Assembly: GCA_002427325.1 (NCBI GenBank)
Contig: DIQS01000033.1
Coordinates: forward strand, 37,396 to 76,523
Direction of reading: 5' to 3'
DNA length: 39,128 nt
Source of the DNA: Cloacimonetes bacterium UBA5456
GTDB lineage: Bacteria > Cloacimonadota > Cloacimonadia > Cloacimonadales > Cloacimonadaceae
The position numbers and the translations under genes are program-made. This document shows, one piece after another, positions 1,797 through 18,704 of this stretch. How positions within the stretch are numbered: position 1 is the stretch's first letter; each line of letters opens with the position of its first letter. Below the pieces are notes generated by a model that was not told the origin of the DNA, did no database searches, and was given only the letters and a program-made list of their open reading frames with translations.

Positions 1797-2834
1797 ATGA
1801 AAAAAGTTATTTTGACACTTATCGTTGTTTCAACGATGTTTGGTCTGTTAAATGCAGCGCCATTTCAGACCCTTGGCATGCTGAGAACGCCAGACGCGTA
1901 TGTTTTGCCACACAAAGCAGCAGAATTTATGGTCGCAGGATACTATCTTGATATTGCCCAACCGCAAGATGCGGCATTTAAGGGCTTTATGCCTTATGCA
2001 ATGGTGGGAGCCGGCATATTAGACCGTTTAGAAATCGGTGCATTTGTCGGAAGCAAGGTCAACGATGAGCCTATGGTTTATTTTCTCAATGCAAAAGTAA
2101 AGATTTTGGAAGAGACAAACACCCTTCCGCAATTTGCACTTGGAATGGACAACATCCTCTCCAGCCAGAAGTATCATAATGGTCTTAACCTAAATCCCGG
2201 CGATGATTTTTATACCCATCCGGATAAGACCGACTATGAAAACTATTCAATCTATGGAGTTGTCTCGAAGCAGGCTTATTTCCTCGGTATGCCTTGGATG
2301 TTGAATGTTGGCATGGGATCAAATCGCTTTGCAGGACAGGTTAAACGCTCTCGTATCCTTCAATCAAGCTTTGTTTCTGCTGAGTTTTCACCCGTCAACA
2401 ATCTCGCTATTCAAGGCGAATTTGACGGTGCAGACTTTAATCTGGGTTTGAGATACAGCTATGATAATTTCTCATTCAAGCTGGGTGCTCAGTCCGTGGA
2501 AGACTTAGCGAAAAACAATGGCTATGAAGACAACCTTCGCGTTGCTTTCGCTGTTTCTTATCTCTTTGACAAGTATGCCGAAGCTCATCGCCGTCCTCAG
2601 CTTAGCAGCCTTAACAAGCCTGGAATGACCGGCGGCACTGTTGACGTTGGTTCCCAAGGTCAGGCCGGTGGGGTCGTTGTACCGCCCACAGGTTCCACGG
2701 GCACCGCACAAAGCATGCTTTCACCTGAAGTAAGAAACTTGTTAGAAGAGCTCAGAATCTTACGTGAAGAACGCAGTAAAGCACAGAAATCTTTGGACGA
2801 CTTACGTCTGCTTATCCAAGAACTGAAACAATAA
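1797..2834 (+). CDS. Putative outer-membrane beta-barrel protein with a Gly/Pro-rich linker and a C-terminal coiled-coil tail
   Basis: The ATG at 1797 is preceded by GGAGGG (the ORF track starts at GTG 1785). Signal peptide MKKVILTLIVVSTMFGLLNA. Alternating hydrophobic beta-strand patterns end in an internal beta-signal-like VAFAVSYLF. About 85 aa follow: GGTVDVGSQGQAGGVVVPPTGSTG, then the heptad-like EVRNLLEELRILREERSKAQKSLDDLRLLIQELKQ. Confidence 0.7.
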   Translation: MKKVILTLIVVSTMFGLLNAAPFQTLGMLRTPDAYVLPHKAAEFMVAGYYLDIAQPQDAAFKGFMPYAMVGAGILDRLEIGAFVGSKVNDEPMVYFLNAKVKILEETNTLPQFALGMDNILSSQKYHNGLNLNPGDDFYTHPDKTDYENYSIYGVVSKQAYFLGMPWMLNVGMGSNRFAGQVKRSRILQSSFVSAEFSPVNNLAIQGEFDGADFNLGLRYSYDNFSFKLGAQSVEDLAKNNGYEDNLRVAFAVSYLFDKYAEAHRRPQLSSLNKPGMTGGTVDVGSQGQAGGVVVPPTGSTGTAQSMLSPEVRNLLEELRILREERSKAQKSLDDLRLLIQELKQ

Positions 2835-2899
2835 CTAACATGTATATTGTGTAGCGTGGTGTGTAGGATTCATGCTTCCTAAACCCTTAATAGAAGTGC

Positions 2900-2926
2900 G
2901 CCAGGATGTTTCACAAGCATCCTGGC
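2900..2926 (+). other. Intercistronic hairpin (9-bp stem, no U-tract) between the barrel gene and the giant gene
   Basis: GCCAGGATG (2900-2908) pairs with CATCCTGGC (2918-2926). It is followed by acgctattgaag, so it is not a canonical intrinsic terminator. Confidence 0.4.
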
Positions 2927-2985
2927 ACGCTATTGAAGACGGCTTTATGCCATTGAACTTCTTGTGAGTAAAAAGTGAGCAGGTT

Positions 2986-5900
2986 ATGAGAAATTTTATA
3001 AAAGTATTCTTGATGATACTCTTGTTGCAGGCTTGTCTGTCTCTTGCCAATGCCTTCATCGAAAACCTTAGTGAAGAAGAGATATTAATCCTTGCCGAAG
3101 AGTTGCAAGAAGAAGACATAGAGATGCTTATGGAATTCATAAGCGAAGAAAAGCAGATGATGAGAGAGCTTTCAAAACAGTTCCTGATCGACGAGCTTCC
3201 CCAACTAATAGCACTTGATCCAGAGCAAGCAGGAATAGCATTGGAGAGCTTTTCCGAATCTTTCAACTATATGAGAGATGAGGAAGTCAGGTATCTTTTG
3301 GGACATCTCTATGCGCGTATAGGCCAGACGGATAGGGCTATTGACACCTTTGCCGCTTTGCTCGAAACAGATTTTGATCTTGATTCACGGAAAATGATGG
3401 GACTCATGTTCCACAGCATCTTGTCTGAACTCATAGAAGCGGGAGAAAATGAACTGTCATTCCGCTATCTGAATACTATCCTCAGCCACGGATTGGTGTC
3501 TGATGAACTCATACTCAGTTATCTCTATCTTTTTTCTGAATTAAATCAGGACAAACAAGATGTGCTCAGCACCATCCAATCCTATATGGAGAACAATGGA
3601 ACCCTGCTTGAAGTGATCCTTCCAGTTAAAAACTCAGTGTTATCCAGATTGGAACAAATTGATTTTGAAACTTTTTATCAGAACCCAAGTGAAAACAACC
3701 TTAAAGCTATTATCCGAGATATAGACCAAATTGAGATAGACCTTGGTGCATTAAATAGCATCGTTCAAGAAATGCCGAACACCTTGTTTAAGCCTCGCTT
3801 GAACAAGCAACATAAATCTGAGGTCAAGAAGCTCCAGGAGCTTAGAGACCATCTTACTGTGTATGCCGGAGTGCCTTTGCTCTCCGAACGGGTTCAAGAC
3901 CAAACTTTGGATATTATCGCACAAATCCGCGTAAGCATACAACAATACTATCGCACTCTTGACATCATTGAAGCCTATTTGAACAAATATTATGCAGACT
4001 ATGAGGCAGGCCTCCTTGTTGAAGATGAAATCTTTATGGGTGACCTCTATCTTGACAGTGCAATCCAGTTGGAGCAGACGGTTAAGATCTATGAAGAAAT
4101 GCTTGAGATCCTCGACGAACTGCTTTTGGAAGATATCGAAGCTGGATACCTCGAAGAACTGAGACAACAGCGTGAAGAGATCGTATCGGAAAAAGCTCGC
4201 ATCGAAGCTGCTCATAGAGAACTGCTCGCAAACGTTGAATTTGAGAGTAGCGAAGATATGATTATCTTTGAAGAGCTGCTTGACGGATATAACGACATTC
4301 AAGAAGAAGCTCGCCTAATGACCTTGATCTGTGACGAGATAGAAGATTTTGTGATGAACGATATGACAGACATCTTGGGCGTTGATCTCAAGCAAGCAAA
4401 GATTGATAGAGTAGATACCGGCATTCAAGAGCTTTTGGCGGATCAAGGTCTTATTGATGAGCTTGGCCAAGCTTATGAACAGTCTGTCACCGAGCTTGAC
4501 TTCATCACTCTCAAGCTAAAATATCGTCGCCAGATCGATGAATATGAAGCTTTTATCGCCACACAAAATGAACTTAGCGATGATGAGCTATTTGAAAACC
4601 AAGCAATACAGCGCGGTAAACTCTCTGCAATAGCTAACGAAATTGAGGCCTTCCGCAGAGAACATCCCAATTATCAGGGGATGATTCAGCCCACCGGGAT
4701 ATATTTTGCACAAGAAGCTGACCTTCATTATATGTTGGGTGAATTAGAGTATTATGCTCATCCCGAAGATATGACGATCGCACAGAATCATTTCCGCAGC
4801 GCTCTTAGATTAGATCCGAAATTCCCCGATAGAGACCTCGCTCTTTATAACCTTGCCTTCATCAGCACTGAACTCATCAGACAAGAAGTGGATAACAACA
4901 AGATTAGCTATCGCATGAATGCAAGAGTCAATGAAGAGCCTCCGGCAAACAGCATCTATTCCGTGGCAAACTTTGCCGAACCTTTTAACGCTCTTACCGA
5001 GATCGTGAATAACTATCCGAATTCAAAAATGCATGAAGATGCAATATATCGTCTCGGTCTTTTGAACTTTAGCTTTGCTCGCGACTCGAAAGACCCCGAG
5101 CAATATGAAGATGCTGCACTTGCCCACTTCAACCAGATCATTGCCAATGAGGATAGTCCTCTTTATTATGAGGCACTTTATCAGCGTGGTTGGGTTCGCA
5201 TGAACAGCTTTGAACACGATGTCTTGCGCCAGGCTATGGACGACTTTGTTTATATCCTCTTGGCCATCGATGCAGGTCACATAGAAGACCCTCAACTCGT
5301 GGCTGACTATCGTCAAGACGCCGTGGATAACATCGCCTACTGTCTCATTGCTTTTGACGGAACAGACTTCTATTCCCAGACCAAGAGTGTGGCTGAAGTT
5401 CAAAGAGTCTTCAATAACTATAGCAATGAAGAGGTGATGGAGCAGATCATTGACGGCGCAATTCGCAACAAGTTAGACCTCAGCGCATCCACGCAGGCTG
5501 TTGACCTGTTGGAACTCAAGCTGAATGCAGTCCCTTATTCCTATTATAATCCCGTCATCCTCGACTCTATCTTGGTTCTCTATCACAATGCCGGACAGGA
5601 ATTGCGCGATGACCAAGACCTTGATGCCATCACTCAGAACATCTATCAGAGAATGATTGATGAATATGGCTATGGTAGTAAATGGTATGACGTTAACAAA
5701 GATAAAGAAATCAGCCGTCAGCTTGACATCATAGAAAATGCTTATTCCCAAAAAGCTATTCGCTTGTTCAACAATTTTGCCAATAACATTGGACATGAGA
5801 CCCTAAACAATTATGACAAGCACATGGCAGTGTTTGAAAAATATGCAGAGCTGCACAATGATGACTATCTTGCCTTCAAGGCAGAACGTGATAGTGTCAT

Positions 5901-8838
5901 GGTGTTTAACTATGCAGTTTTGGCTTCAACAACCGAAGATTCAAAAGACTTTGTCTTGGCAATATCCAAGCTGAACGAATATAACGATAAATATCCCCAC
6001 AACACACGTTTCTTCGAATATGAGCAAATGACACTGGAATATGCCAAGGCTCTCTTCGTCAGAGCTCAAAATAACTTTGCTGACCCAGATTTTGTTCCCG
6101 TCGAAGGTGATTTTACTGACGAAGATGAGGCCTTCACATTCCTGCAAAATAGAACTACTCGATATATGAACGTTATTCGCCAAGAAGAATATTACACTGC
6201 TCAGAGACTCAGAGAAGCAAACGATCTGATTTTGCTCTTGGCAGATACTCAATTCATGCGCGAAAAATTGCCCGAGGCTACTCAGCTCTATTTGCAGGCT
6301 CTTCAAGAAGAAGATATCATGACAAATAGCCAAAAGAGAGAAACCTATCTCAAGCTTGCCGACATGAGTGAGCGTCAAGGTGAATATGCCAAGTCTGAGG
6401 GATGGTTCCGTCAAGCATTGGCATATGCCCAAAACTCTGAAGATGAAGCAAACATCAGACAGGATATCTTAGTTCAGATTCAAAACAGCTTTGAAAAAGC
6501 CAGCGAAAGCGGCGACTTCATCACAGAAGCTAATGAGCGTTTGCGCCTTGCTGCTGAGATGGGAGCCGGACGCGGCATTGAAGTCTTGGGTCAAAAGAAC
6601 GCTGCTGTGGAAGCTTTCACAAAAGCCGGAGCCTATCAACAGGCAATTGATCTCTTGATGGAATTAGCTGAAACTGACGATACTATCGATGCAGTGTATT
6701 ACCGCTATCACCAAGCCATCGAGATTGCAGAAGAAAAGATGCTCGACAAGGAATATGCCCAGGCTCTCGAATCAGAGTTTTTGACAAAGTATCCTGCAAG
6801 CCTCTATGCCTTCCAGTTGCGCTTGGCTTCAGTAAGTCGCAAAGCAGTGGCAGAAGAGCATGTTCAAGCCGCAGAAGGCTTCTTACAGCTCTTTAATGAA
6901 GCCAGAGCAAACACCATCGACTATGGTGACCAAGTGGTCAGCGAATTGCTCATGGACGCTATCCTGATGAACAGCAGAGCAAACCGCATTGAAGAAGAGT
7001 ACCGTTTGTGCCATCAATTCATTGAGCTTTACCCCGAGCTTCCCGAAGCACTGATATATCTTGAACACATGGTTGTGGGACACAGAGACAGAAATGAGAT
7101 GGACGAACATCTTCGTCTTGCCAAAGAACTCATGAAAAAAGATCCCTCGAAAGATGGATATTATAAATATTATGCCAATAGTGAGCTTCACAAGGTCGCT
7201 TTGCGCTTTGACGAAGCCTACATCGAAAAGGATTATACCCAAGCATTTGCTATCCGTGATGAATATCGCACAATGCAACATGGCTTTGAAAATGAGGGGC
7301 TGAGTTTTGATAACCAAGCTGTCTATAATATCTTTGCCCAAGTTCAGGCAGAATATGATGAGCTGCAGCGCAAGCTTGCCTATCTCAAGAGTTTTGACGA
7401 TAAGCTCAGTGCCATTGAGCACGGAGACTTCATGAGTAAGACTCCGAATCAGCACGTGAGAGTAAACAATCTTACGACATGGAATAGAAACTTAGAGAAC
7501 GGCGACCGTCGCATTCCGCTCTTTAACACGGCAACCTCTGCCGAAGTTAAAAAGGTGGAGAAGATTCTCAACGATGGCTTTGCCTCCGGATACTACTTAG
7601 ACAATGACCGCATCACGAGATCCTATAATCTCATGGCTAAAATCCATGAAAAAGCTGTAGATGTGTTGGACACACAAGTAAGAAGCTATTGGGAAATCAC
7701 CGGTGAAGGTCGTGAAAATAGAAATTACTATGGCGAAAACTTCGGGATTCTCGTAGAACAGACTGTCTGGCAACAGATCTTGCCTCATATTCAAGCATCT
7801 CTTGGCTATCACTCTTTTCTACATACAAACTATTATTTAGCGGGTTATGAAAACAGCTTTACGGAAGCTGCAATCACAGCCCTGAACAAATATGAACAGA
7901 TTCCTGAATATCGCACCGTGGACTATGTGCTCGACAACCAGTGGCAGATCACCGGCAATCCTCAGAGTGCAGACACAAACATCACGCAGATCAGGACTCC
8001 AAAGAATGTAGCTTTGGGTAGCATCAACGTTCCTGCCGAGAACACTCTCACCATCTCTCGCAGCCTGCAGTTTGACTTAGAGCCTGACTTTGCTCTACTT
8101 CAGCTCATCTTCCCTCTTGAAATGGATATCTGGGTTAATGGCAGTGCTGTGAGTTCCAGTTGGGTGCCCGTTGATACTTTGGACACAAAGAATGCTGATA
8201 CCACACGTTATAGTTATATGATCGACGGTTCATATTTTGCCCCCGGTGGAAATGAACTGCAGATTGTCTTTAACAATAACGACTCATCAAGTTTGCAGGC
8301 AGCCGCTGCAGTGAAGCTCTTCACCTCACGCGCACGCATCTTGGAGAACATTCCTCCCGTCAGTCAGAGCATTAGCAGCTCGACGAACTGGATTGTTTAC
8401 CACGTCGATGATGAAGGTGAGGAGATCAGACAAAGAGCAAATCTTGCTGAGAATTGGAACATCGAAAACGAAAACCTCTTCGACTGGGAGATCGCAGAAG
8501 CACTGCCGATCTGGATAGTCGAAGATGAAGAAACAACTATAAATAACATCGTATTTGAAACGGAATTCATGATTGACACTCAATTCCTTGAAGGCATGAT
8601 CGACATCATTGCGCCCGAATCTGTCACCGTCTATCTAAATGACGTAGAAATAGGTGGAGCAATGTTTGACTATGATCCCGAGCCTCTCACGGTCTATAAG
8701 AGTCAAATACTAATCGAGCCACATCAGGTGGTGGAAGGACGAAACGTATTGCGTTTTGAAGTGGAAAACTTCAGCGAATACCGTGGAATCATGGCAAACA
8801 TCCATTACCTCGTTGCCGGTAAGGAGGAAATCAGATGA
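2986..8838 (+). CDS. Giant (1950 aa) secreted or lipoprotein-like protein: acidic N-terminal segment, long helical TPR-like region, two C-terminal beta-sandwich (galactose-binding-like) domains
   Basis: Uninterrupted 5853-nt ORF. Signal peptide MRNFIKVFLMILLLQACLSLANA. TPR-like units include LLGHLYARIGQTDRAIDTFAALLE, NHFRSALRLDPKFPDRDLALYNLAF and KLADMSERQGEYAKSEGWFRQALAYA. The C terminus is beta-rich, with DIWVNGSAVSS...GGNELQIVFNN and VTVYLNDVEIGG...EGRNVLRFEVENF. Confidence 0.85.
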   Translation: MRNFIKVFLMILLLQACLSLANAFIENLSEEEILILAEELQEEDIEMLMEFISEEKQMMRELSKQFLIDELPQLIALDPEQAGIALESFSESFNYMRDEEVRYLLGHLYARIGQTDRAIDTFAALLETDFDLDSRKMMGLMFHSILSELIEAGENELSFRYLNTILSHGLVSDELILSYLYLFSELNQDKQDVLSTIQSYMENNGTLLEVILPVKNSVLSRLEQIDFETFYQNPSENNLKAIIRDIDQIEIDLGALNSIVQEMPNTLFKPRLNKQHKSEVKKLQELRDHLTVYAGVPLLSERVQDQTLDIIAQIRVSIQQYYRTLDIIEAYLNKYYADYEAGLLVEDEIFMGDLYLDSAIQLEQTVKIYEEMLEILDELLLEDIEAGYLEELRQQREEIVSEKARIEAAHRELLANVEFESSEDMIIFEELLDGYNDIQEEARLMTLICDEIEDFVMNDMTDILGVDLKQAKIDRVDTGIQELLADQGLIDELGQAYEQSVTELDFITLKLKYRRQIDEYEAFIATQNELSDDELFENQAIQRGKLSAIANEIEAFRREHPNYQGMIQPTGIYFAQEADLHYMLGELEYYAHPEDMTIAQNHFRSALRLDPKFPDRDLALYNLAFISTELIRQEVDNNKISYRMNARVNEEPPANSIYSVANFAEPFNALTEIVNNYPNSKMHEDAIYRLGLLNFSFARDSKDPEQYEDAALAHFNQIIANEDSPLYYEALYQRGWVRMNSFEHDVLRQAMDDFVYILLAIDAGHIEDPQLVADYRQDAVDNIAYCLIAFDGTDFYSQTKSVAEVQRVFNNYSNEEVMEQIIDGAIRNKLDLSASTQAVDLLELKLNAVPYSYYNPVILDSILVLYHNAGQELRDDQDLDAITQNIYQRMIDEYGYGSKWYDVNKDKEISRQLDIIENAYSQKAIRLFNNFANNIGHETLNNYDKHMAVFEKYAELHNDDYLAFKAERDSVMVFNYAVLASTTEDSKDFVLAISKLNEYNDKYPHNTRFFEYEQMTLEYAKALFVRAQNNFADPDFVPVEGDFTDEDEAFTFLQNRTTRYMNVIRQEEYYTAQRLREANDLILLLADTQFMREKLPEATQLYLQALQEEDIMTNSQKRETYLKLADMSERQGEYAKSEGWFRQALAYAQNSEDEANIRQDILVQIQNSFEKASESGDFITEANERLRLAAEMGAGRGIEVLGQKNAAVEAFTKAGAYQQAIDLLMELAETDDTIDAVYYRYHQAIEIAEEKMLDKEYAQALESEFLTKYPASLYAFQLRLASVSRKAVAEEHVQAAEGFLQLFNEARANTIDYGDQVVSELLMDAILMNSRANRIEEEYRLCHQFIELYPELPEALIYLEHMVVGHRDRNEMDEHLRLAKELMKKDPSKDGYYKYYANSELHKVALRFDEAYIEKDYTQAFAIRDEYRTMQHGFENEGLSFDNQAVYNIFAQVQAEYDELQRKLAYLKSFDDKLSAIEHGDFMSKTPNQHVRVNNLTTWNRNLENGDRRIPLFNTATSAEVKKVEKILNDGFASGYYLDNDRITRSYNLMAKIHEKAVDVLDTQVRSYWEITGEGRENRNYYGENFGILVEQTVWQQILPHIQASLGYHSFLHTNYYLAGYENSFTEAAITALNKYEQIPEYRTVDYVLDNQWQITGNPQSADTNITQIRTPKNVALGSINVPAENTLTISRSLQFDLEPDFALLQLIFPLEMDIWVNGSAVSSSWVPVDTLDTKNADTTRYSYMIDGSYFAPGGNELQIVFNNNDSSSLQAAAAVKLFTSRARILENIPPVSQSISSSTNWIVYHVDDEGEEIRQRANLAENWNIENENLFDWEIAEALPIWIVEDEETTINNIVFETEFMIDTQFLEGMIDIIAPESVTVYLNDVEIGGAMFDYDPEPLTVYKSQILIEPHQVVEGRNVLRFEVENFSEYRGIMANIHYLVAGKEEIR

Positions 8839-9113
8839 GGAAATCACTATTAATCCTGCTCTTCGCTTTACTTGGAATCGGCTTCCTTTCCGCCCAATAT
8901 ACAGGAGGCGGCTACATCAATGCTGAGGGAGTCTATGTAGAAGAAGAAGAGTTCGTAATTGAGTTGAGGGACATGGCTCCCGACTCTGGAATCTATAAAA
9001 TCAAATTAGATACCTTTTTCATGAGCTATAAATATAGGATGGAGCTCACGGATGAGTGTGTCGAAGAATACAGTGAAGAATTACTAAATACATGGCTTAA
9101 GGAGTCAAAATGA
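8835..9113 (+). CDS. Small (92 aa) secreted protein of unknown function, translationally coupled on both sides
   Basis: AAGGAGG lies 7 nt upstream of the ATG. ATGA overlaps the giant gene stop at 8835-8838 and the exbB start at 9110-9113. Signal peptide MRKSLLILLFALLGIGFLSAQ. Confidence 0.7.
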   Translation: MRKSLLILLFALLGIGFLSAQYTGGGYINAEGVYVEEEEFVIELRDMAPDSGIYKIKLDTFFMSYKYRMELTDECVEEYSEELLNTWLKESK

Positions 9114-9874
9114 AAAAGAAACTTAACATCCTGATAATGGTATCTCTGCTTTTAAGCATGGGTATGCTGTTTGCACAAGAGACTGAAGCTGCTGCTGCCC
9201 CAGCCCCTACTGGCAGTGTCAACTTTATCGAAATGTACACCACAAGCGGATTTTTCGCTCATCTCATCGCAATTGTCGTGCTAATTGGCTTAGCAATGGC
9301 AGTAGTTCGCTACATGCAGTTGTATGTGCGCGAGAAGATTGATGCTGAAAAGTTTTTCTTAAAGCTTAAAAACTTTATCAAAAACGATCAGATTGACGAA
9401 GCCATTAAGGTTGCCGGTGAATTCCGCGGAACTACAATGGGCTTTATTTTCTGGAGCGGCCTAACTGTTTATAAAGATGTACGCAAATCCGGTAAAACCG
9501 GCGAAGAAGCTCGCATTTCAGTACAAAATGCTTTTGACGAAGCTGTTCTCCAAACAGTTCACAAACTTGACGGCGGCCTTTTCTGGTTTGATACCCTTGC
9601 TCAGATTGCCACCTATCTCGGTCTTCTGGGAACCATTTGGGGCTTGATCGCATCTTTTAGCAGCTTGAGTGGTCTCACCGGTGCTGCTGCAAACGTAGCT
9701 CTTACAAATGGTATTCAAATGGCAATGGGAACGACAGCTCTCGGTTTGTTCGGTGCAATCCCGCTCACGCTTCTCAAAGGCTGGTTCTTCACCCGTGCAT
9801 CCAATATCATTAACAATATTGATGAATACAGCGTTAAACTCGTAAACCACATCAACAACTATATTAAGGGCTAA
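9110..9874 (+). CDS. exbB: MotA/TolQ/ExbB family proton-channel protein with an N-terminal signal peptide
   Basis: 254 aa. SD AAGGAG. Three TM segments follow a cleavable-looking leader (MGMLFAQETEAA). The family hallmark LGLLGTIWGLIASF is followed by the GIQMAMGTTALGLFGAIP helix. Confidence 0.9.
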   Translation: MKKKLNILIMVSLLLSMGMLFAQETEAAAAPAPTGSVNFIEMYTTSGFFAHLIAIVVLIGLAMAVVRYMQLYVREKIDAEKFFLKLKNFIKNDQIDEAIKVAGEFRGTTMGFIFWSGLTVYKDVRKSGKTGEEARISVQNAFDEAVLQTVHKLDGGLFWFDTLAQIATYLGLLGTIWGLIASFSSLSGLTGAAANVALTNGIQMAMGTTALGLFGAIPLTLLKGWFFTRASNIINNIDEYSVKLVNHINNYIKG

Positions 9875-9878
9875 GAGC

Positions 9879-10406
9879 ATGGCAGTATATCGTCCTTCGC
9901 AGGCGAGGCAACAAAAGGGCCAGACAGCACCTCAGGAACCAAATTTGATTCCTATTATGAACCTGTTTCTAACCATCATTCCGTTTTTGCTTTTGATGGT
10001 GACGATCTCACAGGTTGCGCTGGTCGCCCTTAATTTTTCCTCGGATGGAGGCGGAGGTGGAGAAGGTGGCGGAGATGGTGGCGGTGGCGATAAAGCCAAG
10101 CAAATCGAAATTCATCTCATGCTGACGGATAACCAAGCCTTGGGACTTTTCCCCGGCATGGAAGTTCGAGAGCCTGGTACTGACACTGTTAGATTACCTT
10201 GGGTACGCGAGAATATCTATGATTTTGACGGTTTAAATACTCTTCTGAAAGCAATGAAAGAGCGTAATACAAGTACTGAAGAAATCAGCATTGTCGCCCA
10301 CAATGATGTGATCTACGACACTTTGATCCGCACGATCGACCTCTGCAAAGATAATGGCTTTAGTACCGTCCATTACAAAAGCCCAAGAAGTACTTATTAT
10401 TATTAG
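9879..10406 (+). CDS. exbD: ExbD/TolR family protein (paralog 1) with a poly-Gly insert after the TM helix
   Basis: 175 aa. NLIPIMNLFLTIIPFLLLM is the ExbD-type N-terminal TM motif. The C-terminal ISIVAHNDVIYDTLIRTIDLCKDNGFSTVHY is the typical periplasmic domain. The insert is SSDGGGGGEGGGDGGGGDK. Confidence 0.85.
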   Translation: MAVYRPSQARQQKGQTAPQEPNLIPIMNLFLTIIPFLLLMVTISQVALVALNFSSDGGGGGEGGGDGGGGDKAKQIEIHLMLTDNQALGLFPGMEVREPGTDTVRLPWVRENIYDFDGLNTLLKAMKERNTSTEEISIVAHNDVIYDTLIRTIDLCKDNGFSTVHYKSPRSTYYY

Positions 10407-10426
10407 GAAGGGGGAGGATAAATATT

Positions 10427-10960
10427 ATGGCATTAAGAAGTTCCAAGCCCGGAACCAGAGTAGTCAGAAAAAAAGCTGATGATGTTCAAGGTCTTTCCAT
10501 TACATCGCTTTTGGACGTTCTGACGATTATCTTGGTTTTCCTCATCAAAAACGTATCGATGGAAGCCGTGAAGATTTCCGAATTGCCCGATATGATATAT
10601 CCGACTACTATCACCACTGAGAATTTGATGGAAAATGCAGCCGTGACACCTGTTAAGATCTATACAGATCGTGTCCTTTTGGGTAATGATAACCAATTAC
10701 TCGGAAGCCCTGCAGACCTCACCGAAAACCCTCAGGTGCGCTCGGATATGGTAAACTATTTGCGCTATGAATTCAACGTCATCCCAGAAGACAAAAAAGA
10801 TGACGCCTGTTTGATAGTGCAATCGGATTCAAATATCCCTTGCGGATATATCACGGAAATCGTTGGCGCAGCTGTCGGCACCGGTTTTGCGAATATTTAT
10901 TTTGCAACATTAGAAGATGAACAATGGCTACAACACCATGTTTCTTCTACTGGAAAATAA
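10427..10960 (+). CDS. exbD: ExbD/TolR family protein (paralog 2)
   Basis: 177 aa. SD GGGGGAGG. LSITSLLDVLTIILVFLI is the TM motif. CLIVQSDSNIPCGYITEIVGAAVGTGFANIYFAT is the periplasmic domain. Confidence 0.85.
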   Translation: MALRSSKPGTRVVRKKADDVQGLSITSLLDVLTIILVFLIKNVSMEAVKISELPDMIYPTTITTENLMENAAVTPVKIYTDRVLLGNDNQLLGSPADLTENPQVRSDMVNYLRYEFNVIPEDKKDDACLIVQSDSNIPCGYITEIVGAAVGTGFANIYFATLEDEQWLQHHVSSTGK

Positions 10961-10970
10961 CGGAGGTCAG

Positions 10971-12389
10971 ATGGCAAAGATATTAAGTTTAAGACTCAAC
11001 TATAAAGATAAGTTCCTGGATTATGCCAAGGAAGGTAAAGAGATCAAAAAGAGCTTTACCGTTGGATCTAACAAATTCATGCAATGGCAAATCCTTGATC
11101 CCAAGTTCCCGGACAAACACGTCTTAGTCAAAAAGAAAGGCGGGGAATATGTTTTGAACATGCTACCCGGCGCAAAGCTGAGCGTGGAAAAAGGAGGCAA
11201 TTCTGTAGATGCAAATTATCTAAAACAGAACAATTTGCTCTCCATGAACGAGCTTACCCTCAAAGAAGACATGAAGGGAACCCTTTCTCTGGCTCCCGAT
11301 TGGGAAGTGGAGTTTGAATACAGAACCCCTTGGGTTGTCGTGCTTACTCCCGAAGAAAAGGCAATTGTAGCCCAATATGCTCGCAGAGCAAGACCGGATG
11401 CAGTAGCCCGATTTAATCGAACCGTAATTTTACTTGTGTTGGCACTTACGATAGTATTCAGCATTATATTTGAGTTATTCCTCAAACCTGAATATAAAAC
11501 GCAAGCTGACACTATTTCTGAACTGTTACAATCGATGGAACAAAAAGCCCAAAAAGTGGAAGTATCAAAGCTTGATGCACCCACAACCGGTTATGATGTG
11601 CCCCCACCCGTTGAAGAAGTGACGGGAGATGATGCAGCTCCGACCACCGGTGCTGCAAGCTCAGGGGCTGCAAGACCAAGTGGACCCTCAGGTTTGGGGG
11701 CTGCAATGGGAGGATTTGATCCTAATGCAGTTTCTGCTGCTCCCACAATCTCCATCGTCACCGTTGCAACCGGATTCGCCGTAAACCGTCCCGGTGGCGG
11801 AAGACCCGGAAGCGGAAGTGGAACAGGCGGCAGTGGTGCAGGCGGTGGCGCAGGTAGTGCAGGAACCGTCTTTGATCCCACCGCATTGCCGGTCTCCGGT
11901 GATGTTGGAAGCGTGGCAACTCAAGGTCCTCGCACCAGTGGCTCACTTACTCGCCCCGAAGGCGCTGTCGGCACACACGTAACAGGAGACGCAAGTAAAC
12001 TTGCACCCAGCGGAAAAGCTTGGGGAGACATCGTAGCCCAACAAAGGATCGAAGCTGAATACAGGCAAATGGGACTTAGCACCGTTACAGAAGCTTCAAT
12101 CGGAACCTTGGATGAAGCAGGAAAAGCAAAGTATGCCAGTCTCAAAGACCAAGTCGAATCTCGCAAAGGACAGATCGAAACTGTCTATAGAGAGATGCAA
12201 ATCAGACAAAGCGTAAGCTTCACCATCACCATCTTTGTTGGAGCAGACGGCTCCGTTCGCGAATCAAAAGTAGTGCCAAATGGACAATATCCTGAAGCAT
12301 TCGTCGCGAAAGTAAAACAAGTTGTCGATAGCTGGAGATTCAACGTAAGAGAAGCAATGCCATATCAATTCCGCATGCGTGCTGGTTGA
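10971..12389 (+). CDS. TonB_C-type energy transducer-like protein with an ~150-aa FHA-like cytoplasmic N-domain, one TM helix and a long Gly/Pro/Ala/Ser linker
   Basis: I prefer the ATG at 10971: GGAGG lies 4 nt upstream, it sits 10 nt after the exbD stop, and the track start at 10917 would overlap exbD. TM helix VILLVLALTIVFSIIFELFL. The linker is about 180 aa of low complexity. The C terminus SFTITIFVGADGSVRESKVVPNGQYPEAFVAKVKQVVDSWRFN resembles TonB_C. Confidence 0.75.
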   Translation: MAKILSLRLNYKDKFLDYAKEGKEIKKSFTVGSNKFMQWQILDPKFPDKHVLVKKKGGEYVLNMLPGAKLSVEKGGNSVDANYLKQNNLLSMNELTLKEDMKGTLSLAPDWEVEFEYRTPWVVVLTPEEKAIVAQYARRARPDAVARFNRTVILLVLALTIVFSIIFELFLKPEYKTQADTISELLQSMEQKAQKVEVSKLDAPTTGYDVPPPVEEVTGDDAAPTTGAASSGAARPSGPSGLGAAMGGFDPNAVSAAPTISIVTVATGFAVNRPGGGRPGSGSGTGGSGAGGGAGSAGTVFDPTALPVSGDVGSVATQGPRTSGSLTRPEGAVGTHVTGDASKLAPSGKAWGDIVAQQRIEAEYRQMGLSTVTEASIGTLDEAGKAKYASLKDQVESRKGQIETVYREMQIRQSVSFTITIFVGADGSVRESKVVPNGQYPEAFVAKVKQVVDSWRFNVREAMPYQFRMRAG

Positions 12390-12418
12390 TAAGCATTACA
12401 ACCATATATAAACAACAT

Positions 12419-12446
12419 GCCCCGCTATCATGGCGGGGCTTTTTAT
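12419..12446 (+). terminator. Rho-independent terminator closing the envelope operon
   Basis: GCCCCGC (12419-12425), loop tatcatg, GCGGGGC (12433-12439), then TTTTTAT. It begins 30 nt after the stop at 12389. Confidence 0.8.
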
Positions 12447-12536
12447 ATTCCTGCGATTCTTATAACGAAACCAGAGCATCGGTCTTGTTTCCATCTGCAA
12501 TCGCCCAAATAATGAACTATACACTAAGCTTTGCTA

Positions 12537-12565
12537 TTGACAAAAACTCCCGCTCGCGGATATTG
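12537..12565 (+). promoter_or_regulatory. Candidate sigma70-type promoter immediately upstream of priA
   Basis: TTGACA (12537-12542), 17-nt spacer, ATATTG (12560-12565). The priA ATG at 12571 is only 5 nt downstream of the -10 hexamer. Confidence 0.35.
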
Positions 12566-12570
12566 AAGAT

Positions 12571-14910
12571 ATGCATTATTACAAGGTCTATCTCCCTCTT
12601 GGAATCCAAAAAGATTTCAGCTATGCCAGCAAGGACAAGCTCCCTTTTGGCGCGCGCGTCGTCGTCCCCTTGAAAGCCAAGCCCATGATGGGGCTTTGCG
12701 GCGAAGAAGTGCGCTCCGAGGGCTATAAATATCGCGAGATAATCGAGGTGCTTGATGATGAGTCCATCCTTCCGCTGGAACTCTTTGAACTCGCCAAATG
12801 GATGGCAAACTACTATCATCTCAGCATCGGCAGAGTGCTCTTTGCCATGCTCCCCTCCCGTCTGCAGATAGACATCGATGCAAAGATTAGCTGGATCAGC
12901 GAAACAAAACCGCCACACGCCCGATTTGAGCCGTTATATGAGGCGTTAAAAGGCCAAGACGAGCTACGTCTCTCCCAGATCAAAAAACAGCTTAAAAACC
13001 AAGCTATATACGCTCTCTGCGAAGAGGCCTTTGACCTTGAACTCATCAGCTACAAGAGCAAATTACGCCGGCGAGACAAGCCCAAAGTGCGCAATTTTAT
13101 CCGCATTATCCAGCACGATTTTGACGAAGACAAGCTCCCCCTCAGACAACGCGAAGCGTGGGAACTCATCAAAATCGAGAGCGAGCCCTTCCCCATGGCG
13201 GATGTTAGCAACCTCATAAGTTATAGCGCCATCAAAGCTTTGGTGAGCAAAGGCATCATCGAAATCTTCCAGCGCGAACTTCGCGAAGCAGAGCTTTTGC
13301 GAGATACCGGCGCCAAAGCCAAGGACATCGTGCTAAATGACGAACAAAACACCGCCATCGCCGAGATGTCCGAAAACTTTGGCAAATATGGAGTTCACCT
13401 GCTTTATGGCATCACGGGCAGCGGCAAGACCGAAGTCTATATCGAGATGATCCGCAAATATCAGAAAGTAGGCAAATCCGTAATCTTTCTCATCCCGGAA
13501 ATCGCGCTCACCCCTCAAATGTTGGATAGATTTGACAGCAGCTTCGGCGATAGTCTCGCTGTATTGCACAGCCAACTCACAGATGCACAACGCTTTAACC
13601 AATGGCAAAACATCCGCAGCGGAAAATGCAAGCTGATCATCGGAGCACGTAGCGCCATCTTTGCGCCCGCCGTGGATCTCGGACTCATCATCGTGGATGA
13701 AGAACACGAACAGAGCTATAAACAAGACAATAGTCCTCGCTACAACGGCAGGGATATGGCAATCGTGCGCGGCAAATTGCAAGGCGCACAGGTGATTTTA
13801 GGCTCCGCCACGCCCTCCTTGGAAAGCTGGAACAACGCCCTCGAAGGACGCTACACCCTGCACAAGATGATGAATCGCCCGCTGGATTTCTCCTTGCCCG
13901 AAGTGAAAATCATCGACATGCGCGATGCTCACAGCAAAGAGATCATCGGCGAAGAACTCAGCGAAGCCATTGCCGATAGATTAGACAAAAACGAGCAAGT
14001 GATACTCTTTCAAAACAGGCGAGGCTACTCCTCCTTCGTGCAATGCCTAAAGTGCGGTGAACTCGTGAGTTGTCCCAATTGCGAGATCGGCATGCACTAT
14101 CACCGTGATCGCGAAGAAATGCACTGCCACTATTGCGGACACTTCTATCCCAGCCCCAGACGCTGCCCTAAATGCGGCTCTTTTTCCTTTGCCTATGGTT
14201 CGCCGGGAACCCAAAAGGTGGAGCAAACCCTCAAGCTGCTCTTCCCCTCCGCCCGGATTTTGAGGCTGGATAGCGATAGCTCGTCCACCAACCTGAAAAG
14301 CATGTATAAACGGATGAAGAACAGGGATATAGACATTCTCCTCGGCACCCAGATGATCACCAAAGGACTGGACTTTCCACTCGTCACCTTGGTGGGCATA
14401 ATCAACGCCGATATCGCGCTGAATATCCCCGACTTCCGCTCTGCTGAACGTAGTTTTCAGCTCATCACGCAGGTTGCCGGACGCAGCGGACGCGCCGAAC
14501 GAAAGGGCGAAGTCATCATCCAAACCTTTAACCCCGAACACTATGCCATCCGCTATGCCAAAGAGCAAAACTTCTGTGATTTTGCAGAAATTGAGCTGAG
14601 ATACCGCAAAAAACTCTATTATCCGCCATATTATCGCCTTGGGCGCATGCTCTTTCAAAGCACGGATATACAACAACTTAAGGCGGAGATGCTCCTGCTT
14701 TCGGAAACGTTGCCCAAAAGAGACGGAAGCCTCCTTATCCTTGGTCCCGTGCAGGCGCCGATTCCTAAAATCAATATGATGCACCGTTATCACATCATCA
14801 TCAAAGCGCAGTCTCCTGCCATCCTCAAAGACGCCATAAAACACATCGAAAACAACTTCAAAAGCAAGCTAAAACCGCAAATTGACATCGATCCCGCGAT
14901 TCTCATGTAG
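12571..14910 (+). CDS. priA: Primosomal protein N' (replication restart helicase PriA)
   Basis: 779 aa. Walker A GITGSGKTEVY, DEEHE box, Cys-rich zinc region CLKCGELVSCPNCEIGMHYH...HCHYCGH...CPKCGS, and helicase C motifs (QVAGRSGR). Confidence 0.95.
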   Translation: MHYYKVYLPLGIQKDFSYASKDKLPFGARVVVPLKAKPMMGLCGEEVRSEGYKYREIIEVLDDESILPLELFELAKWMANYYHLSIGRVLFAMLPSRLQIDIDAKISWISETKPPHARFEPLYEALKGQDELRLSQIKKQLKNQAIYALCEEAFDLELISYKSKLRRRDKPKVRNFIRIIQHDFDEDKLPLRQREAWELIKIESEPFPMADVSNLISYSAIKALVSKGIIEIFQRELREAELLRDTGAKAKDIVLNDEQNTAIAEMSENFGKYGVHLLYGITGSGKTEVYIEMIRKYQKVGKSVIFLIPEIALTPQMLDRFDSSFGDSLAVLHSQLTDAQRFNQWQNIRSGKCKLIIGARSAIFAPAVDLGLIIVDEEHEQSYKQDNSPRYNGRDMAIVRGKLQGAQVILGSATPSLESWNNALEGRYTLHKMMNRPLDFSLPEVKIIDMRDAHSKEIIGEELSEAIADRLDKNEQVILFQNRRGYSSFVQCLKCGELVSCPNCEIGMHYHRDREEMHCHYCGHFYPSPRRCPKCGSFSFAYGSPGTQKVEQTLKLLFPSARILRLDSDSSSTNLKSMYKRMKNRDIDILLGTQMITKGLDFPLVTLVGIINADIALNIPDFRSAERSFQLITQVAGRSGRAERKGEVIIQTFNPEHYAIRYAKEQNFCDFAEIELRYRKKLYYPPYYRLGRMLFQSTDIQQLKAEMLLLSETLPKRDGSLLILGPVQAPIPKINMMHRYHIIIKAQSPAILKDAIKHIENNFKSKLKPQIDIDPAILM

Positions 14911-16838: not shown

Positions 16839-18704
16839 TCACTTTATAATGCTTAGTTTTTTAATGTCATATCTTCCGCCATCCTCTTCATATCTAATGA
16901 AATAGATGCCCGAGGAAGGGAATATTCTGCTGGATAGTTCCAGCGTGGATGACCTTTGTTTTTCTTCAAATATCTTCTGACCGCGCAGGTTATAGACAGT
17001 CACTCTGCCACCTTCTCCGTTGAGTTTGCAATTGAAATCCTGTTGACCGTAACCCGGATTGGGATAAATCTCAATGGCGACTTGCGGGGTCTCTTCTTCA
17101 TGCTCCGGCCCTTCGGACTCCATGCTAAAGTCTTTATAGCCAACATGATGGATCTTTCCGGTGCCACCTTGTTGCAGCCAATAATAGATGCGATAGTCGG
17201 AGGAATATCCATCATCGAGCCCAACTGTGCTGAAACTATAGCTTTTGCCGGCAGATTGGCCTTTGAGTATCTTGTGATTAATGGTGTCGGCACGGGCTAT
17301 CCATCTGCTAAGGATGTAATAATTTCCATCATCCTCTCTGGATAGATTAAATAATCCCACATGAAGCTTGGAATTGAGGACGGGGTTAGCGGCTTGTGTA
17401 TCAAATAGTTGAGTGTTATCGTTATCAAATCTTATCGTCACTTCTTTGCGTGCCGCGCTTTCCGAATCTACCAGATTGAGGGTGGACCTGCTGATGAAGC
17501 TGCGATATTTCGACAATCCATTTGTGGCATTTTGAAAGTTTTGTGAATATGCCGTATTGAGCCCTGTTATCAGCTTCTCGCCGACAATCATCGTGCGCGG
17601 TAAAGAATTGAATCGATAGTCGTTAAAGCGTTGTTGCGATGGGATATTGCCCGGTTCATCCGTGAGCAGCGGATAATATTCTATGGGATGCATTTTCTCT
17701 GATAAAATAGACTCTTGATAATATCTTATTGTGTTGGCATCCTGGCTGCGAACGAAGTTTTCCACCAAATATATGGGATATTCGTCCTGATAAACATTTA
17801 AATTAACGGTCTTTTTATTGTTTACAAGCAGCGTATCGTTCTCAACAAGAGAAGAGCTAATCTTCGCTTCTATACGAAGTTGAGTGGGTTCGCTCGGCAA
17901 AAGAAATGTTGCACTCGTCAGCTCGATATCGTGTTGGGTCTGTCCGAACAAATTTTGGGGAACGCTGAATTCAAGATTTTCATAACCGGTTTCGCCCGGG
18001 CGGCTGAAAATCAGGTTCAGCTTCGTGTCATAAGCCATCTGTTGGCTATGGTTATATACCTTTAAGACGGGATAAACTGGGTTGCCCGGAAGAATATCAC
18101 CTGCGAAGCTGATCTGCTCCAATTCCAAGCCGTCTTGCGGGAACACATAGTCTCCCAAAAGGCCAAAAAGCAGCTCCGCCGCAAATCCGTTTTGCTCAAA
18201 ATTTGTTAAGGTCTGGATGTCACCATATTCCTGCATGTAATAGCTGTGACTGCCTCCGCCCGCACTTGCAGCAACGAATTTATTGAGGATATTTGTTTGA
18301 TAATCAACGAAGAGCCACGCTGCTTCCGCACTATATTGAGTGTTAAAATGATGGTCGATGATGTGATCGTCAACAGTGATTGTCGCAAACTCTATGAGTG
18401 TGCCGGGCTCGCCGGCATTATCGCTATATAGCTGAATCATAGCATCATTGCCAATGCTCGGGAAATATAATCTTGCGCCGCGAGTGGTGAAATAGACCTC
18501 TGATACGGAGGAATATTTACTGCGAAAATCAAAGCGAACCGCCCAAGTTGAGGGGCCAAAAAAGTTGTAGTCTTCTGTGCCGCTGTGATGACGGAAATGA
18601 TATTCACGTTCGGGCGGAAAGACCTCCTCACCGCTGGAAGGATGATAGCCTATGCCAAATAAAAGGCCAAAAAGGAAGAAGGCTATGGGCAATATGCGCT
18701 TCAT
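16839..18704 (-). CDS. Secreted protein of unknown function with a type-A T9SS C-terminal sorting domain
   Basis: 621 aa. Signal peptide MKRILPIAFFLFGLLFGIG. The last ~80 aa (VAIEIYPNPGYG...VTVYNLRGQKIF...SGIYFIRYEE...KKLSIIK) match the Por/T9SS CTD pattern. The start overlaps the ribF stop by 4 nt. Confidence 0.8.
   Translation of the reverse strand: MKRILPIAFFLFGLLFGIGYHPSSGEEVFPPEREYHFRHHSGTEDYNFFGPSTWAVRFDFRSKYSSVSEVYFTTRGARLYFPSIGNDAMIQLYSDNAGEPGTLIEFATITVDDHIIDHHFNTQYSAEAAWLFVDYQTNILNKFVAASAGGGSHSYYMQEYGDIQTLTNFEQNGFAAELLFGLLGDYVFPQDGLELEQISFAGDILPGNPVYPVLKVYNHSQQMAYDTKLNLIFSRPGETGYENLEFSVPQNLFGQTQHDIELTSATFLLPSEPTQLRIEAKISSSLVENDTLLVNNKKTVNLNVYQDEYPIYLVENFVRSQDANTIRYYQESILSEKMHPIEYYPLLTDEPGNIPSQQRFNDYRFNSLPRTMIVGEKLITGLNTAYSQNFQNATNGLSKYRSFISRSTLNLVDSESAARKEVTIRFDNDNTQLFDTQAANPVLNSKLHVGLFNLSREDDGNYYILSRWIARADTINHKILKGQSAGKSYSFSTVGLDDGYSSDYRIYYWLQQGGTGKIHHVGYKDFSMESEGPEHEEETPQVAIEIYPNPGYGQQDFNCKLNGEGGRVTVYNLRGQKIFEEKQRSSTLELSSRIFPSSGIYFIRYEEDGGRYDIKKLSIIK

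Follow-up and report, generated by a model that had tools for sequence, protein, structure and literature searches.

A Giant Gene within a Seven-Gene Operon of Cloacimonadota

The subject of this study is a giant secreted protein encoded in a 39,128-nt stretch of DNA from Cloacimonetes bacterium UBA5456 (assembly GCA_002427325.1, contig DIQS01000033.1, positions 37,396–76,523 of the forward strand; the whole stretch is hereafter called the window). The organism belongs to Candidatus Cloacimonadota, a phylum that abounds in anaerobic digesters and for which no model organism is in culture. The giant gene is the second of seven in an operon (1797–12389) that also encodes a proton-channel subunit, two ExbD/TolR-like proteins, and a TonB-like transducer, and we propose that its product is a diverged relative of the large scaffold protein of the Agl-Glt machinery of Myxococcus. 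The genes and RNA elements of the operon are as follows.

1797–2834, + strand: first gene of the cluster (up349), ~345 aa; the frame is listed from a GTG at 1785, and the ATG at 1797 opens MKKVILTL...
2835–2985, + strand: intergenic leader of the giant gene, with a conserved short motif, GTAGGATTCATRCTTCCTA, and a hairpin at 2901–2925 found by folding the spacers
2986–8838, + strand: giant gene, a single uninterrupted open reading frame (ORF) with an ATG start, 1950 codons encoding 1950 aa
8835–9113, + strand: 92-aa secreted acidic protein in the position of GltF, bounded by start/stop overlaps
9110–9874, + strand: TolQ/ExbB/AglR-like proton-channel subunit, 254 aa (PF01618, E 6.8e-22)
9879–10406, + strand: ExbD1, ExbD/TolR-like, 175 aa (PF02472), with an invariant Asn (PIMNLF) replacing the membrane Asp
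10427–10960, + strand: ExbD2, ExbD/TolR-like, 177 aa (Pfam ExbD), with the membrane Asp kept (SLLDVLTI)
10974–12389, + strand: TonB/GltG-like transducer, 471 aa; the listed ORF opens at 10917, which lies within the preceding gene, and orthologs point to the ATG at 10974 (MAKILSL...)
12419–12439, + strand: intrinsic-terminator-like hairpin ending the operon, with a 9-bp stem containing 7 GC pairs, followed by TTTTTATATT

The original prediction, made from the sequence alone, described the giant gene as coupled to the genes of a motor driven by the proton motive force (PMF), and the gene boundaries bear this out: ATGA overlaps join the giant stop to the start of the 92-aa gene (8835–8838) and the stop of the 92-aa gene to the start of the ExbB-like gene (9110–9113). 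The length of the giant ORF is beyond chance, because an open frame this long is not expected at the G+C content of the window DNA (~43–45%). A misassembled fusion, a possibility raised together with the original prediction, can likewise be ruled out, because the full-length, unsplit protein is encoded in more than 40 independent contigs of metagenome-assembled genomes (MAGs).

The giant begins with a signal peptide, as had been recognized at the outset from its N-terminus and as the leaders of its orthologs confirm, and two routes of processing had been offered for it: cleavage by signal peptidase I (SPase I), or lipidation at a lipobox-like LQAC. Orthologs share the same start Met, and their leaders mostly end in ...FAQ or ...YAQ, which are SPase I-type sites; most have no Cys at the position of the LQAC in the window protein, and no Cys is conserved at any fixed position. 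Because the leader Cys is not conserved and ortholog leaders end in FAQ or YAQ, SPase I cleavage is favored over the lipoprotein route by these comparisons, and we rejected the giant as a lipoprotein. The mature protein has an isoelectric point of 4.4 and is acidic over its entire length, with net charges per 100 aa of −17 (aa 1–100), −18 and −20 (aa 301–500), and −24 (aa 1801–1900). Its strongest negative stretches lie at aa 301–500 and aa 1801–1900, and the acidic head that had been set apart as a module of its own thus dissolves into a property of the whole protein.

The remaining products of the operon resemble, to differing degrees, components of PMF-driven envelope systems. Among solved structures, the channel subunit resembles TolQ (2.6e-11) more closely than ExbB (3.4e-8), and it falls under the NCBIfam cut-offs for both (tolQ, 76.7 bits with a cut-off of 221; exbB, 50.4 bits with a cut-off of 206). 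From the pairing of Asn in ExbD1 with Asp in ExbD2 it follows that the plug would be a heterodimer in which one site can be protonated. In the transducer, a conserved cytoplasmic N-domain of ~150 aa is followed by a single transmembrane helix, and a linker of ~200 aa rich in Gly and Pro then leads to a TonB-C-like domain. This last domain gives weak matches to solved TonB C-terminal domains; among 25 transducer orthologs, 19 match the AgmX/PglI C-terminal domain model (NF033768; best E 5.8e-8, below the cut-off) and 4 weakly match TonB_C. The transmembrane helix of the transducer contains neither His nor an SHLS-type motif.

The products of the two genes that adjoin the giant gene are less readily placed. 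Behind its signal peptide, the up349 protein is beta-rich, and a Gly-rich linker connects this body to a C-terminal coiled coil (its C-terminus matches coiled coils); 19 of 26 orthologs weakly match YjbH, an outer-membrane barrel (PF06082; best E 9.9e-6), and the window copy matches no Pfam or NCBIfam model. Its gene adjoins the giant gene in the loci from Cloacimonadota and also in L052, a divergent locus, and its product is the probable outer-membrane partner of the giant. In the 92-aa protein a near-invariant C-terminus (LLNKWLKESK) contrasts with a poorly conserved body, and in the divergent lineages L049–L051 the protein ends otherwise, in ...NK(L/M/I)LY.

Distribution and Fusion State of the Giant Family

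To delimit the family we relied mainly on an exhaustive HMMER search with aa 751–1950 of the giant as the query and with matches clustered at 50% identity, which returned 94 clusters of relatives (69 at E ≤ 1e-30) in two main length classes, ~1930–2140 aa and ~1240–1500 aa. Every match that carries a source name, the weakest included, comes from Cloacimonadota (such as Ca. Stygibacter australis), and in public records these proteins are labeled "hypothetical protein" or "tetratricopeptide repeat protein." A word-index homolog search, run with the whole giant and with a 46-sequence alignment, recovered almost no family members; the alignment query did yield two more distant proteins, P0097 and P0098, which are taken up below. 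A genome scan with an eight-sequence query found 47 loci (the best 78% identical), nearly all of them in Candidatus Cloacimonadota MAGs, together with a few labeled "uncultured bacterium" and one in a Bacteroidales-labeled bin. In a profile search with ExbD1, the named organisms among the best 120 of its 691 matches are all Cloacimonadota, a set that does not reach into other phyla.

The genomic setting is equally constant. In all Cloacimonadota loci that reach far enough, tblastn places the seven-gene cluster between yraN and priA. The cluster is also kept in loci L049–L053; it is a single-copy cluster at a fixed chromosomal position with housekeeping neighbors (dnaE, yraN, and priA). In L049–L051, whose contigs are longer, dnaE and two genes for GWxTD-domain proteins stand before the cluster and priA after it, which extends the conserved neighborhood.

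What varies is the integrity of the giant gene. It is unsplit in L051 (2139 aa), and in L049 (7963–14311) and L050 (7983–13861) it is divided into genes for 673–677 aa and 1286–1436 aa; the divergent locus L052 (7022–13345), which has other flanking genes, encodes 777 aa and at least 1114 aa. The N-terminal part of the long form (profile aa 94–528) aligns to the separate 677-aa upstream partner in L049 over 407 columns (hhalign probability 96.6%, E 6e-10), and because of this alignment we regard the giant as two fused modules whose junction lies near aa 530. As judged from these alignments, the phylum is polymorphic for fusion or fission of the giant at about window aa 510–530.

Predicted Architecture of the Giant Protein

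Together with its leader, the giant can be divided into the following parts.

2986–3054, + strand: signal peptide (aa 1–23), N-terminus MRNFIKVFLMILLLQACLSLANA, recognized from the sequence and from ortholog leaders
3055–4569, + strand: N-terminal module (aa 24–528), acidic and variable, with a TPR unit at aa 100–135, in the position of GltC in Glt clusters, delimited by alignment and by the split loci
4570–7905, + strand: conserved core (aa 529–1640), a predicted alpha-solenoid of the tetratricopeptide repeat (TPR) type and candidate GltD-like module, from AlphaFold2, Foldseek, and hhalign
7909–8328, + strand: predicted beta-jelly-roll domain 1 (aa 1642–1781), from AlphaFold2 and Foldseek, with no Pfam match
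8359–8814, + strand: predicted beta-jelly-roll domain 2 (aa 1792–1943), from AlphaFold2 and Foldseek

No Pfam or NCBIfam family covers the giant. Pfam TPR models match it below threshold and at two places, aa 100–135 and aa 1084–1150, with best scores of 25.9 bits for TPR_7 (cut-off 27.9) and 25.6 bits for TPR_8 (cut-off 25.7), and NCBIfam contributes a weak match to a CpoB/YbgF-type TPR model and one spurious match. Sequence searches of the PDB with the whole giant, with its C-terminal 450 aa, and with a C-terminal profile returned nothing significant.

Structure prediction is considerably more informative. An AlphaFold2 model of aa 751–1950, built from an alignment of 60 sequences, has a mean predicted local distance difference test score (pLDDT) of 88.8 and consists of helix-turn-helix repeats until about aa 1635, followed by two beta domains. 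With Foldseek, the helical part matches long TPR superhelices (E 2e-9 to 1e-5, probability 1.0), among them Ctr9, Ski3, IFT-A, the TPR region of OGT, SprE of the type IX secretion system (T9SS), and a flagellar periplasmic scaffold chain of Campylobacter jejuni; SprE and the Campylobacter chain are themselves bacterial envelope proteins. On the strength of this model, aa 751 to ~1640 are predicted to be a TPR-type solenoid. For aa 24–750 we infer a helical structure from the composition, from the TPR match at aa 100–135, and from the alignment to the TPR-bearing split partner. The long helical center of TPR-like character in the original prediction is thus borne out by the model and by Foldseek over its modeled part. 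Conservation is distributed unevenly along this helical body: in the family alignment, conservation is lowest over the N-terminal ~530 aa, and conserved motifs appear from about aa 560 onwards, in a core whose modeled part is all helical with a pLDDT of ~75–95.

The two C-terminal galactose-binding-like sandwiches that had been read from the sequence are also upheld. Modeled separately, aa 1636–1950 reach a pLDDT of 94.5 and a predicted template modeling score of 0.80, and Foldseek aligns this segment to tandem jelly rolls of carbohydrate-binding modules (CBMs) and galactose-binding-like domains (E 1.7e-7 to 1e-4, probability ~1.0). The best match is the RsgI3 sensor (6qe7, 1.7e-7), and further matches include rhamnosidases, EngBF, Xyn30D, beta-galactosidases, BcsB, a CBM22 tandem, and CBM35. 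These proteins, several of them glycosidases with accessory domains, have the same fold and tandem layout as is predicted for aa 1642–1943; the likeness is one of fold only, at 7–14% sequence identity, and unlike the known CBM-bearing enzymes the giant has no catalytic module. Sequence methods give little at this distance: aa 1501–1950 match no Pfam model, the jelly rolls match no NCBIfam CBM model, the PDB profile search with the C-terminus lists 6qe7 alone (E 0.29), and one long-form ortholog gives a marginal match (E 0.063) to a glycosylhydrolase-like jelly-roll model. The two beta domains have no detectable sequence similarity to each other. The GxNxL/I strand motifs to which the original prediction had pointed are among the few invariant positions of the region, and domain 2 is missing in certain shorter members of the family (in P0029, for instance, the match stops at about aa 1769). 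A T9SS C-terminal sorting domain (Por_Secre_tail or relatives) was not found in the giant by Pfam, and its C-terminal fold is predicted to be of the CBM type.

Relationship to Agl-Glt-Type Clusters

The gliding and sporulation machines of Myxococcus were shown to have arisen from a smaller core complex (Luciano et al. 2011; PMC3169522). This complex, which combines a TolQR-like motor and a TonB-like arm with large TPR proteins of the periplasm, occurs in scattered non-gliding bacteria; its genes follow the order GltC (630–800 aa)–GltD (940–1430 aa)–(GltE)–(GltF, ~80–95 aa)–AglR–AglQ–AglS–GltG (PMC3169522, Table S3). The operon described here shares this plan. As with GltD (AgmU, MXAN_4870), the gene for a large secreted TPR protein stands with genes for a TolQ-like channel, for a pair of differing TolR/ExbD-like proteins, and for a TonB-like transducer with a cytoplasmic domain, and the order of large TPR protein(s), small secreted protein, motor, and transducer is common to both. 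The split Cloacimonadota forms (~675 aa plus ~1300–1430 aa) furthermore match the sizes of GltC-like and GltD-like pairs, such as the 746 + 1292 aa of Fibrobacter succinogenes, in which Fisuc_1892 (746 aa) was assigned to GltC and Fisuc_1893 (1292 aa) to GltD by homology, alongside homologs of AglR, AglS, and GltG (PMC3169522).

The link at the level of sequence runs through a bridging locus, L054, on a contig with 65% G+C. It contains P0097 (1876 aa), which was found with the family profile, in the gene order 239 aa, P0097, 454 aa, 75 aa, ExbB-like, ExbD, ExbD, 443 aa. The neighbors of P0097 give the locus its Glt-type identity: the 454-aa protein matches gliding_GltE (NCBIfam, 2.5e-38), the 443-aa protein matches gliding_GltG (2.3e-38) and carries an AgmX/PglI tail (myxo_SS_tail, 62.5 bits, above the cut-off of 40), the 75-aa protein weakly matches CglF, and P0097 itself matches gliding_GltC over aa 171–298 (4.7e-7). 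When the giant profile was aligned to P0097 with hhalign, 562 collinear columns were recovered at a probability of 98.05% (E 1.4e-13), pairing window aa 668–1389 with P0097 aa 958–1555, and the shared motifs include several that are not generic to TPRs (LYQRGW in the giant and MYQLAW in P0097, DAxxNIAY, NPxxxxSI, and SxWYxxN). A TPR-rich GltE-like protein, used as a negative control, reached 5.7%. The stand-alone protein P0098 (1128 aa) aligns at 97.5% (window aa 529–1012 with P0098 aa 75–493), and its residue 75 falls on window aa 529, which is exactly the module boundary.

The motor genes point in the same direction. ExbD1 matches the first ExbD of L054 (1.7e-10; cross-match 0.27) and ExbD2 the second (6.6e-11; cross-match 0.17), and the L054 pair (12221–13297) has the same split between Asn and Asp, with PIMNL in one protein and SxxDxxTI in the other; this one-to-one correspondence of the paralogs is independent support for the link to Glt-type systems. 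The channel subunit is 31% identical to its L054 homolog (1.3e-29), and the N-domain of the transducer aligns weakly to that of the L054 GltG-like protein (hhalign E 2e-4, probability 46%). As judged from these profile alignments, the core of the giant (~aa 530–1390) and the large TPR protein of Glt-type clusters are distantly homologous, and we provisionally file the giant as a diverged variant of the GltD-type scaffold and not as an ortholog. The original prediction did not recognize a described family. That statement holds insofar as there is no Pfam or NCBIfam cover and no full-length homology to a characterized family, and it gives way for the core, which has a recognizable, if distant, relative.

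The differences from the Agl-Glt systems are substantial. The N-module, which is fused to the core here, has no detectable similarity to GltC; two predicted jelly rolls stand where GltD has a disordered tail; the giant is apparently not a lipoprotein; and the operon lacks GltE, GltA/B/H/K, CglB, GltI, and GltJ. The cluster of F. succinogenes S85 (FSU_2397/Fisuc_1892, FSU_2398/Fisuc_1893, and FSU_2400–2403) provides a second comparison, drawn from order and size and not from sequence. It has the same succession of TPR, TPR, MotA/TolQ/ExbB, ExbD, ExbD, and TonB-family proteins, its TPR proteins have signal peptides and sizes like those of the split forms, and its host belongs to the same Fibrobacteres–Chlorobi–Bacteroidetes (FCB) super-group; it differs in that the gene upstream belongs to the OmpA family and in the size of the TonB-family protein, which is 308 aa (471 aa for the transducer here).

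A Proposed Envelope-Spanning Machine

We consider it rather likely that the giant is a GltD-like periplasmic scaffold in a PMF-driven, envelope-spanning machine. In such a machine, the channel and an ExbD1/ExbD2 heterodimer would form a 5:2-type motor in which the proton-binding Asp is present on ExbD2 only, by analogy with the AlphaFold model of Agl-Glt (PMC11761067). The motor would act on the TonB-like transducer, the Gly/Pro linker of which would cross the peptidoglycan and dock, along with the TonB-C-like domain, on the solenoid. The N-module and the 92-aa protein, the latter through its conserved C-terminal helix, may join the solenoid to the outer-membrane beta protein encoded upstream, and the jelly rolls may hold a partner protein or else a glycan, which would be peptidoglycan or a polysaccharide of the envelope. 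The assembly as a whole would pass force from the inner to the outer membrane.

Several observations weigh against this proposal and have to be set beside it. The connection to GltD rests on two uncharacterized bridging proteins, P0097 and P0098, and for the neighbors of P0097 in L054, the scores against GltE and GltG stay under the equivalog cut-offs of NCBIfam. None of the gliding_Glt models is matched by a protein of the window or by a long-form ortholog, the AgmX/PglI tail with its sub-threshold match being the one exception. Between the N-module and the GltC-like part of P0097 there is no collinear similarity, nor does the N-module match NF033756, and the 92-aa protein has no detectable homology to the 75-aa protein of L054; a GltE-like gene is absent from the operon, and Pfam detects no FHA domain in the cytoplasmic domain of the transducer. 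GltD of M. xanthus is described as a lipoprotein that has a disordered C-terminus and contains no beta domains (PMC11761067), and P0097 likewise lacks the two jelly rolls. ExbD1 has no membrane Asp, a residue reported to be conserved in both AglQ and AglS. The localization, partners, and ligand of the giant are all features that we infer by analogy with the systems named above. Two narrower assignments were considered and rejected as unsupported: the N-module as a GltC homolog, given the missing collinear match to P0097 and the missing GltC model match, and the 92-aa protein as a GltF homolog, given its lack of similarity to the small protein of L054.

As to what the machine would do, a role in envelope maintenance or in the movement of surface components appears more likely than an accessory trait, because the cluster is single-copy, universal in the phylum, and set in a housekeeping neighborhood. 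To our knowledge, the Cloacimonadota, an anaerobic phylum of the FCB group, are thought to be nonmotile, and we know of no report of gliding among them; the organism studied here is known from MAGs only. In a bolder version of the proposal, the operon would encode a hitherto unrecognized envelope machine that is present throughout the phylum and probably essential. This machine would be a branch of the Agl-Glt/Tol lineage, either deep or acquired by ancient transfer, in which the one-Asp ExbD pair drives a TonB-like arm along a scaffold of ~1600 aa whose CBM-like feet grip peptidoglycan or a surface glycan, and which either replaces Tol-Pal or moves surface components (cryptic gliding). Taken with all of its parts, this version is a speculation that we think unlikely to hold as a whole; if true, it would answer the long-standing question of what the Glt core complex does in bacteria other than myxobacteria.

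Our literature search found no paper connecting Cloacimonadota with Agl/Glt-type systems. The kind of system is known; what would be new is the phylum, the fused scaffold, the CBM-like ends, and the one-Asp ExbD pair. The presence of a recognizable, strongly diverged core complex in every sampled Cloacimonadota lineage, at a fixed chromosomal position, would widen the known range of the Agl-Glt machine family and suggests a housekeeping role in the envelope rather than motility. The operon also offers a compact, seven-gene version of the machine for structural prediction and reconstitution, and the proposed relationship provides a name and a context for a family of ~2000-aa proteins now labeled hypothetical or tetratricopeptide repeat protein.

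Alternative Explanations

Tol-Pal and Ton systems share with the operon a MotA/TolQ/ExbB channel, ExbD/TolR partners, and a single-pass transducer with a long linker and a TonB-C-like domain, and each suggests a reading of its own. In the first of these, the operon would replace Tol-Pal, tethering and constricting the outer membrane at division, with the giant as a CpoB- or TolB-like scaffold and the jelly rolls bound to peptidoglycan. The best solved relatives of the channel are indeed TolQ proteins, weak TPR matches to CpoB/YbgF and BamD recur in the giant and in the split partners, the cluster is universal, confined to a single locus, and set among housekeeping genes, and the Agl-Glt machinery is itself regarded as Tol-derived. 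Yet the operon encodes neither a TolB beta-propeller nor a Pal/OmpA-like peptidoglycan-binding lipoprotein, the CpoB matches are of a generic TPR kind and far below cut-offs, and CpoB, the TPR partner to which the giant would be likened, is some 15 times smaller; we regard a replacement of Tol-Pal as improbable. A Ton-type uptake accessory, in which the motor energizes TonB-dependent transporters encoded elsewhere and the giant is a scaffold in the periplasm or at the outer membrane whose CBM-like domains capture the oligosaccharides to be imported, seems to us a rather poor prospect as well. It would account for the Pfam MotA_ExbB and ExbD matches, the TonB-C-like domain, and the CBM-like fold of the C-terminus, and it draws on F. 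succinogenes, in which the proteins of the cluster (FSU_2396–2403) are abundant in the envelope, are mildly up-regulated on cellulose, and have been discussed as factors of cellulose adhesion and uptake, the authors suggesting TonB-dependent import of cellodextrins. However, Pfam, NCBIfam, and synteny reveal no TonB-dependent transporter in the operon or in its conserved flanks, and the channel is closer to TolQ than to ExbB, with the equivalog cut-offs of NCBIfam missed throughout. The transducer departs from TonB both in the transmembrane helix, which is without the His or SHLS-type motif, and in the ~150-aa conserved cytoplasmic domain, which TonB does not have; the two ExbD paralogs are non-equivalent and match a Glt-type pair; and strict conservation across the phylum beside dnaE, yraN, and priA suggests a core role in the envelope and not the uptake of particular substrates.

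The least probable of the explanations, in our view a long shot, takes the giant past the outer membrane as a surface adhesin or a cellulosome-like scaffold for enzymes, its CBM-like domains binding external polysaccharide. The C-terminal fold would suit such a role, the TPR proteins of F. succinogenes in outer-membrane vesicles have been suggested to act in this way (FSU_2397 was recovered there in one complex together with cellulases, fibro-slime proteins, and OmpA proteins), and the organism has a T9SS, as follows from a protein with a Por_Secre_tail encoded in the window. Against it, the giant carries neither a T9SS sorting domain nor any other known signal for surface export, the lipobox is not conserved among orthologs, its gene is tightly coupled in translation to those of an inner-membrane motor and transducer, and its core is homologous to a protein that is periplasmic in Myxococcus. 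A GltD-like scaffold within the periplasm thus remains the reading that we prefer.

RNA Elements and Neighboring Genes

The hairpin in the leader of the giant gene (2901–2925) is strong. Spacers from L002, L003, L005, L018, and L025 were folded along with it, and the stem is maintained through differing sequences in L003, L005, L018, and L025. The element has no Rfam match, and because no T-run follows it, a classical terminator can be ruled out; the RNA may act in processing, stabilization, or attenuation.

Elsewhere in the window, a gene on the minus strand (16839–18704) encodes the 621-aa protein with the type IX secretion C-terminal sorting domain (Por_Secre_tail), and an anaerobic ribonucleotide reductase is encoded as well; the two together fit an anaerobic organism of the FCB group. 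Two genes upstream of the operon and on the opposite strand (136–1188, −), a gene encodes a D-glucuronyl C5-epimerase C-terminal domain (8e-30), a domain that is unusual in bacteria.

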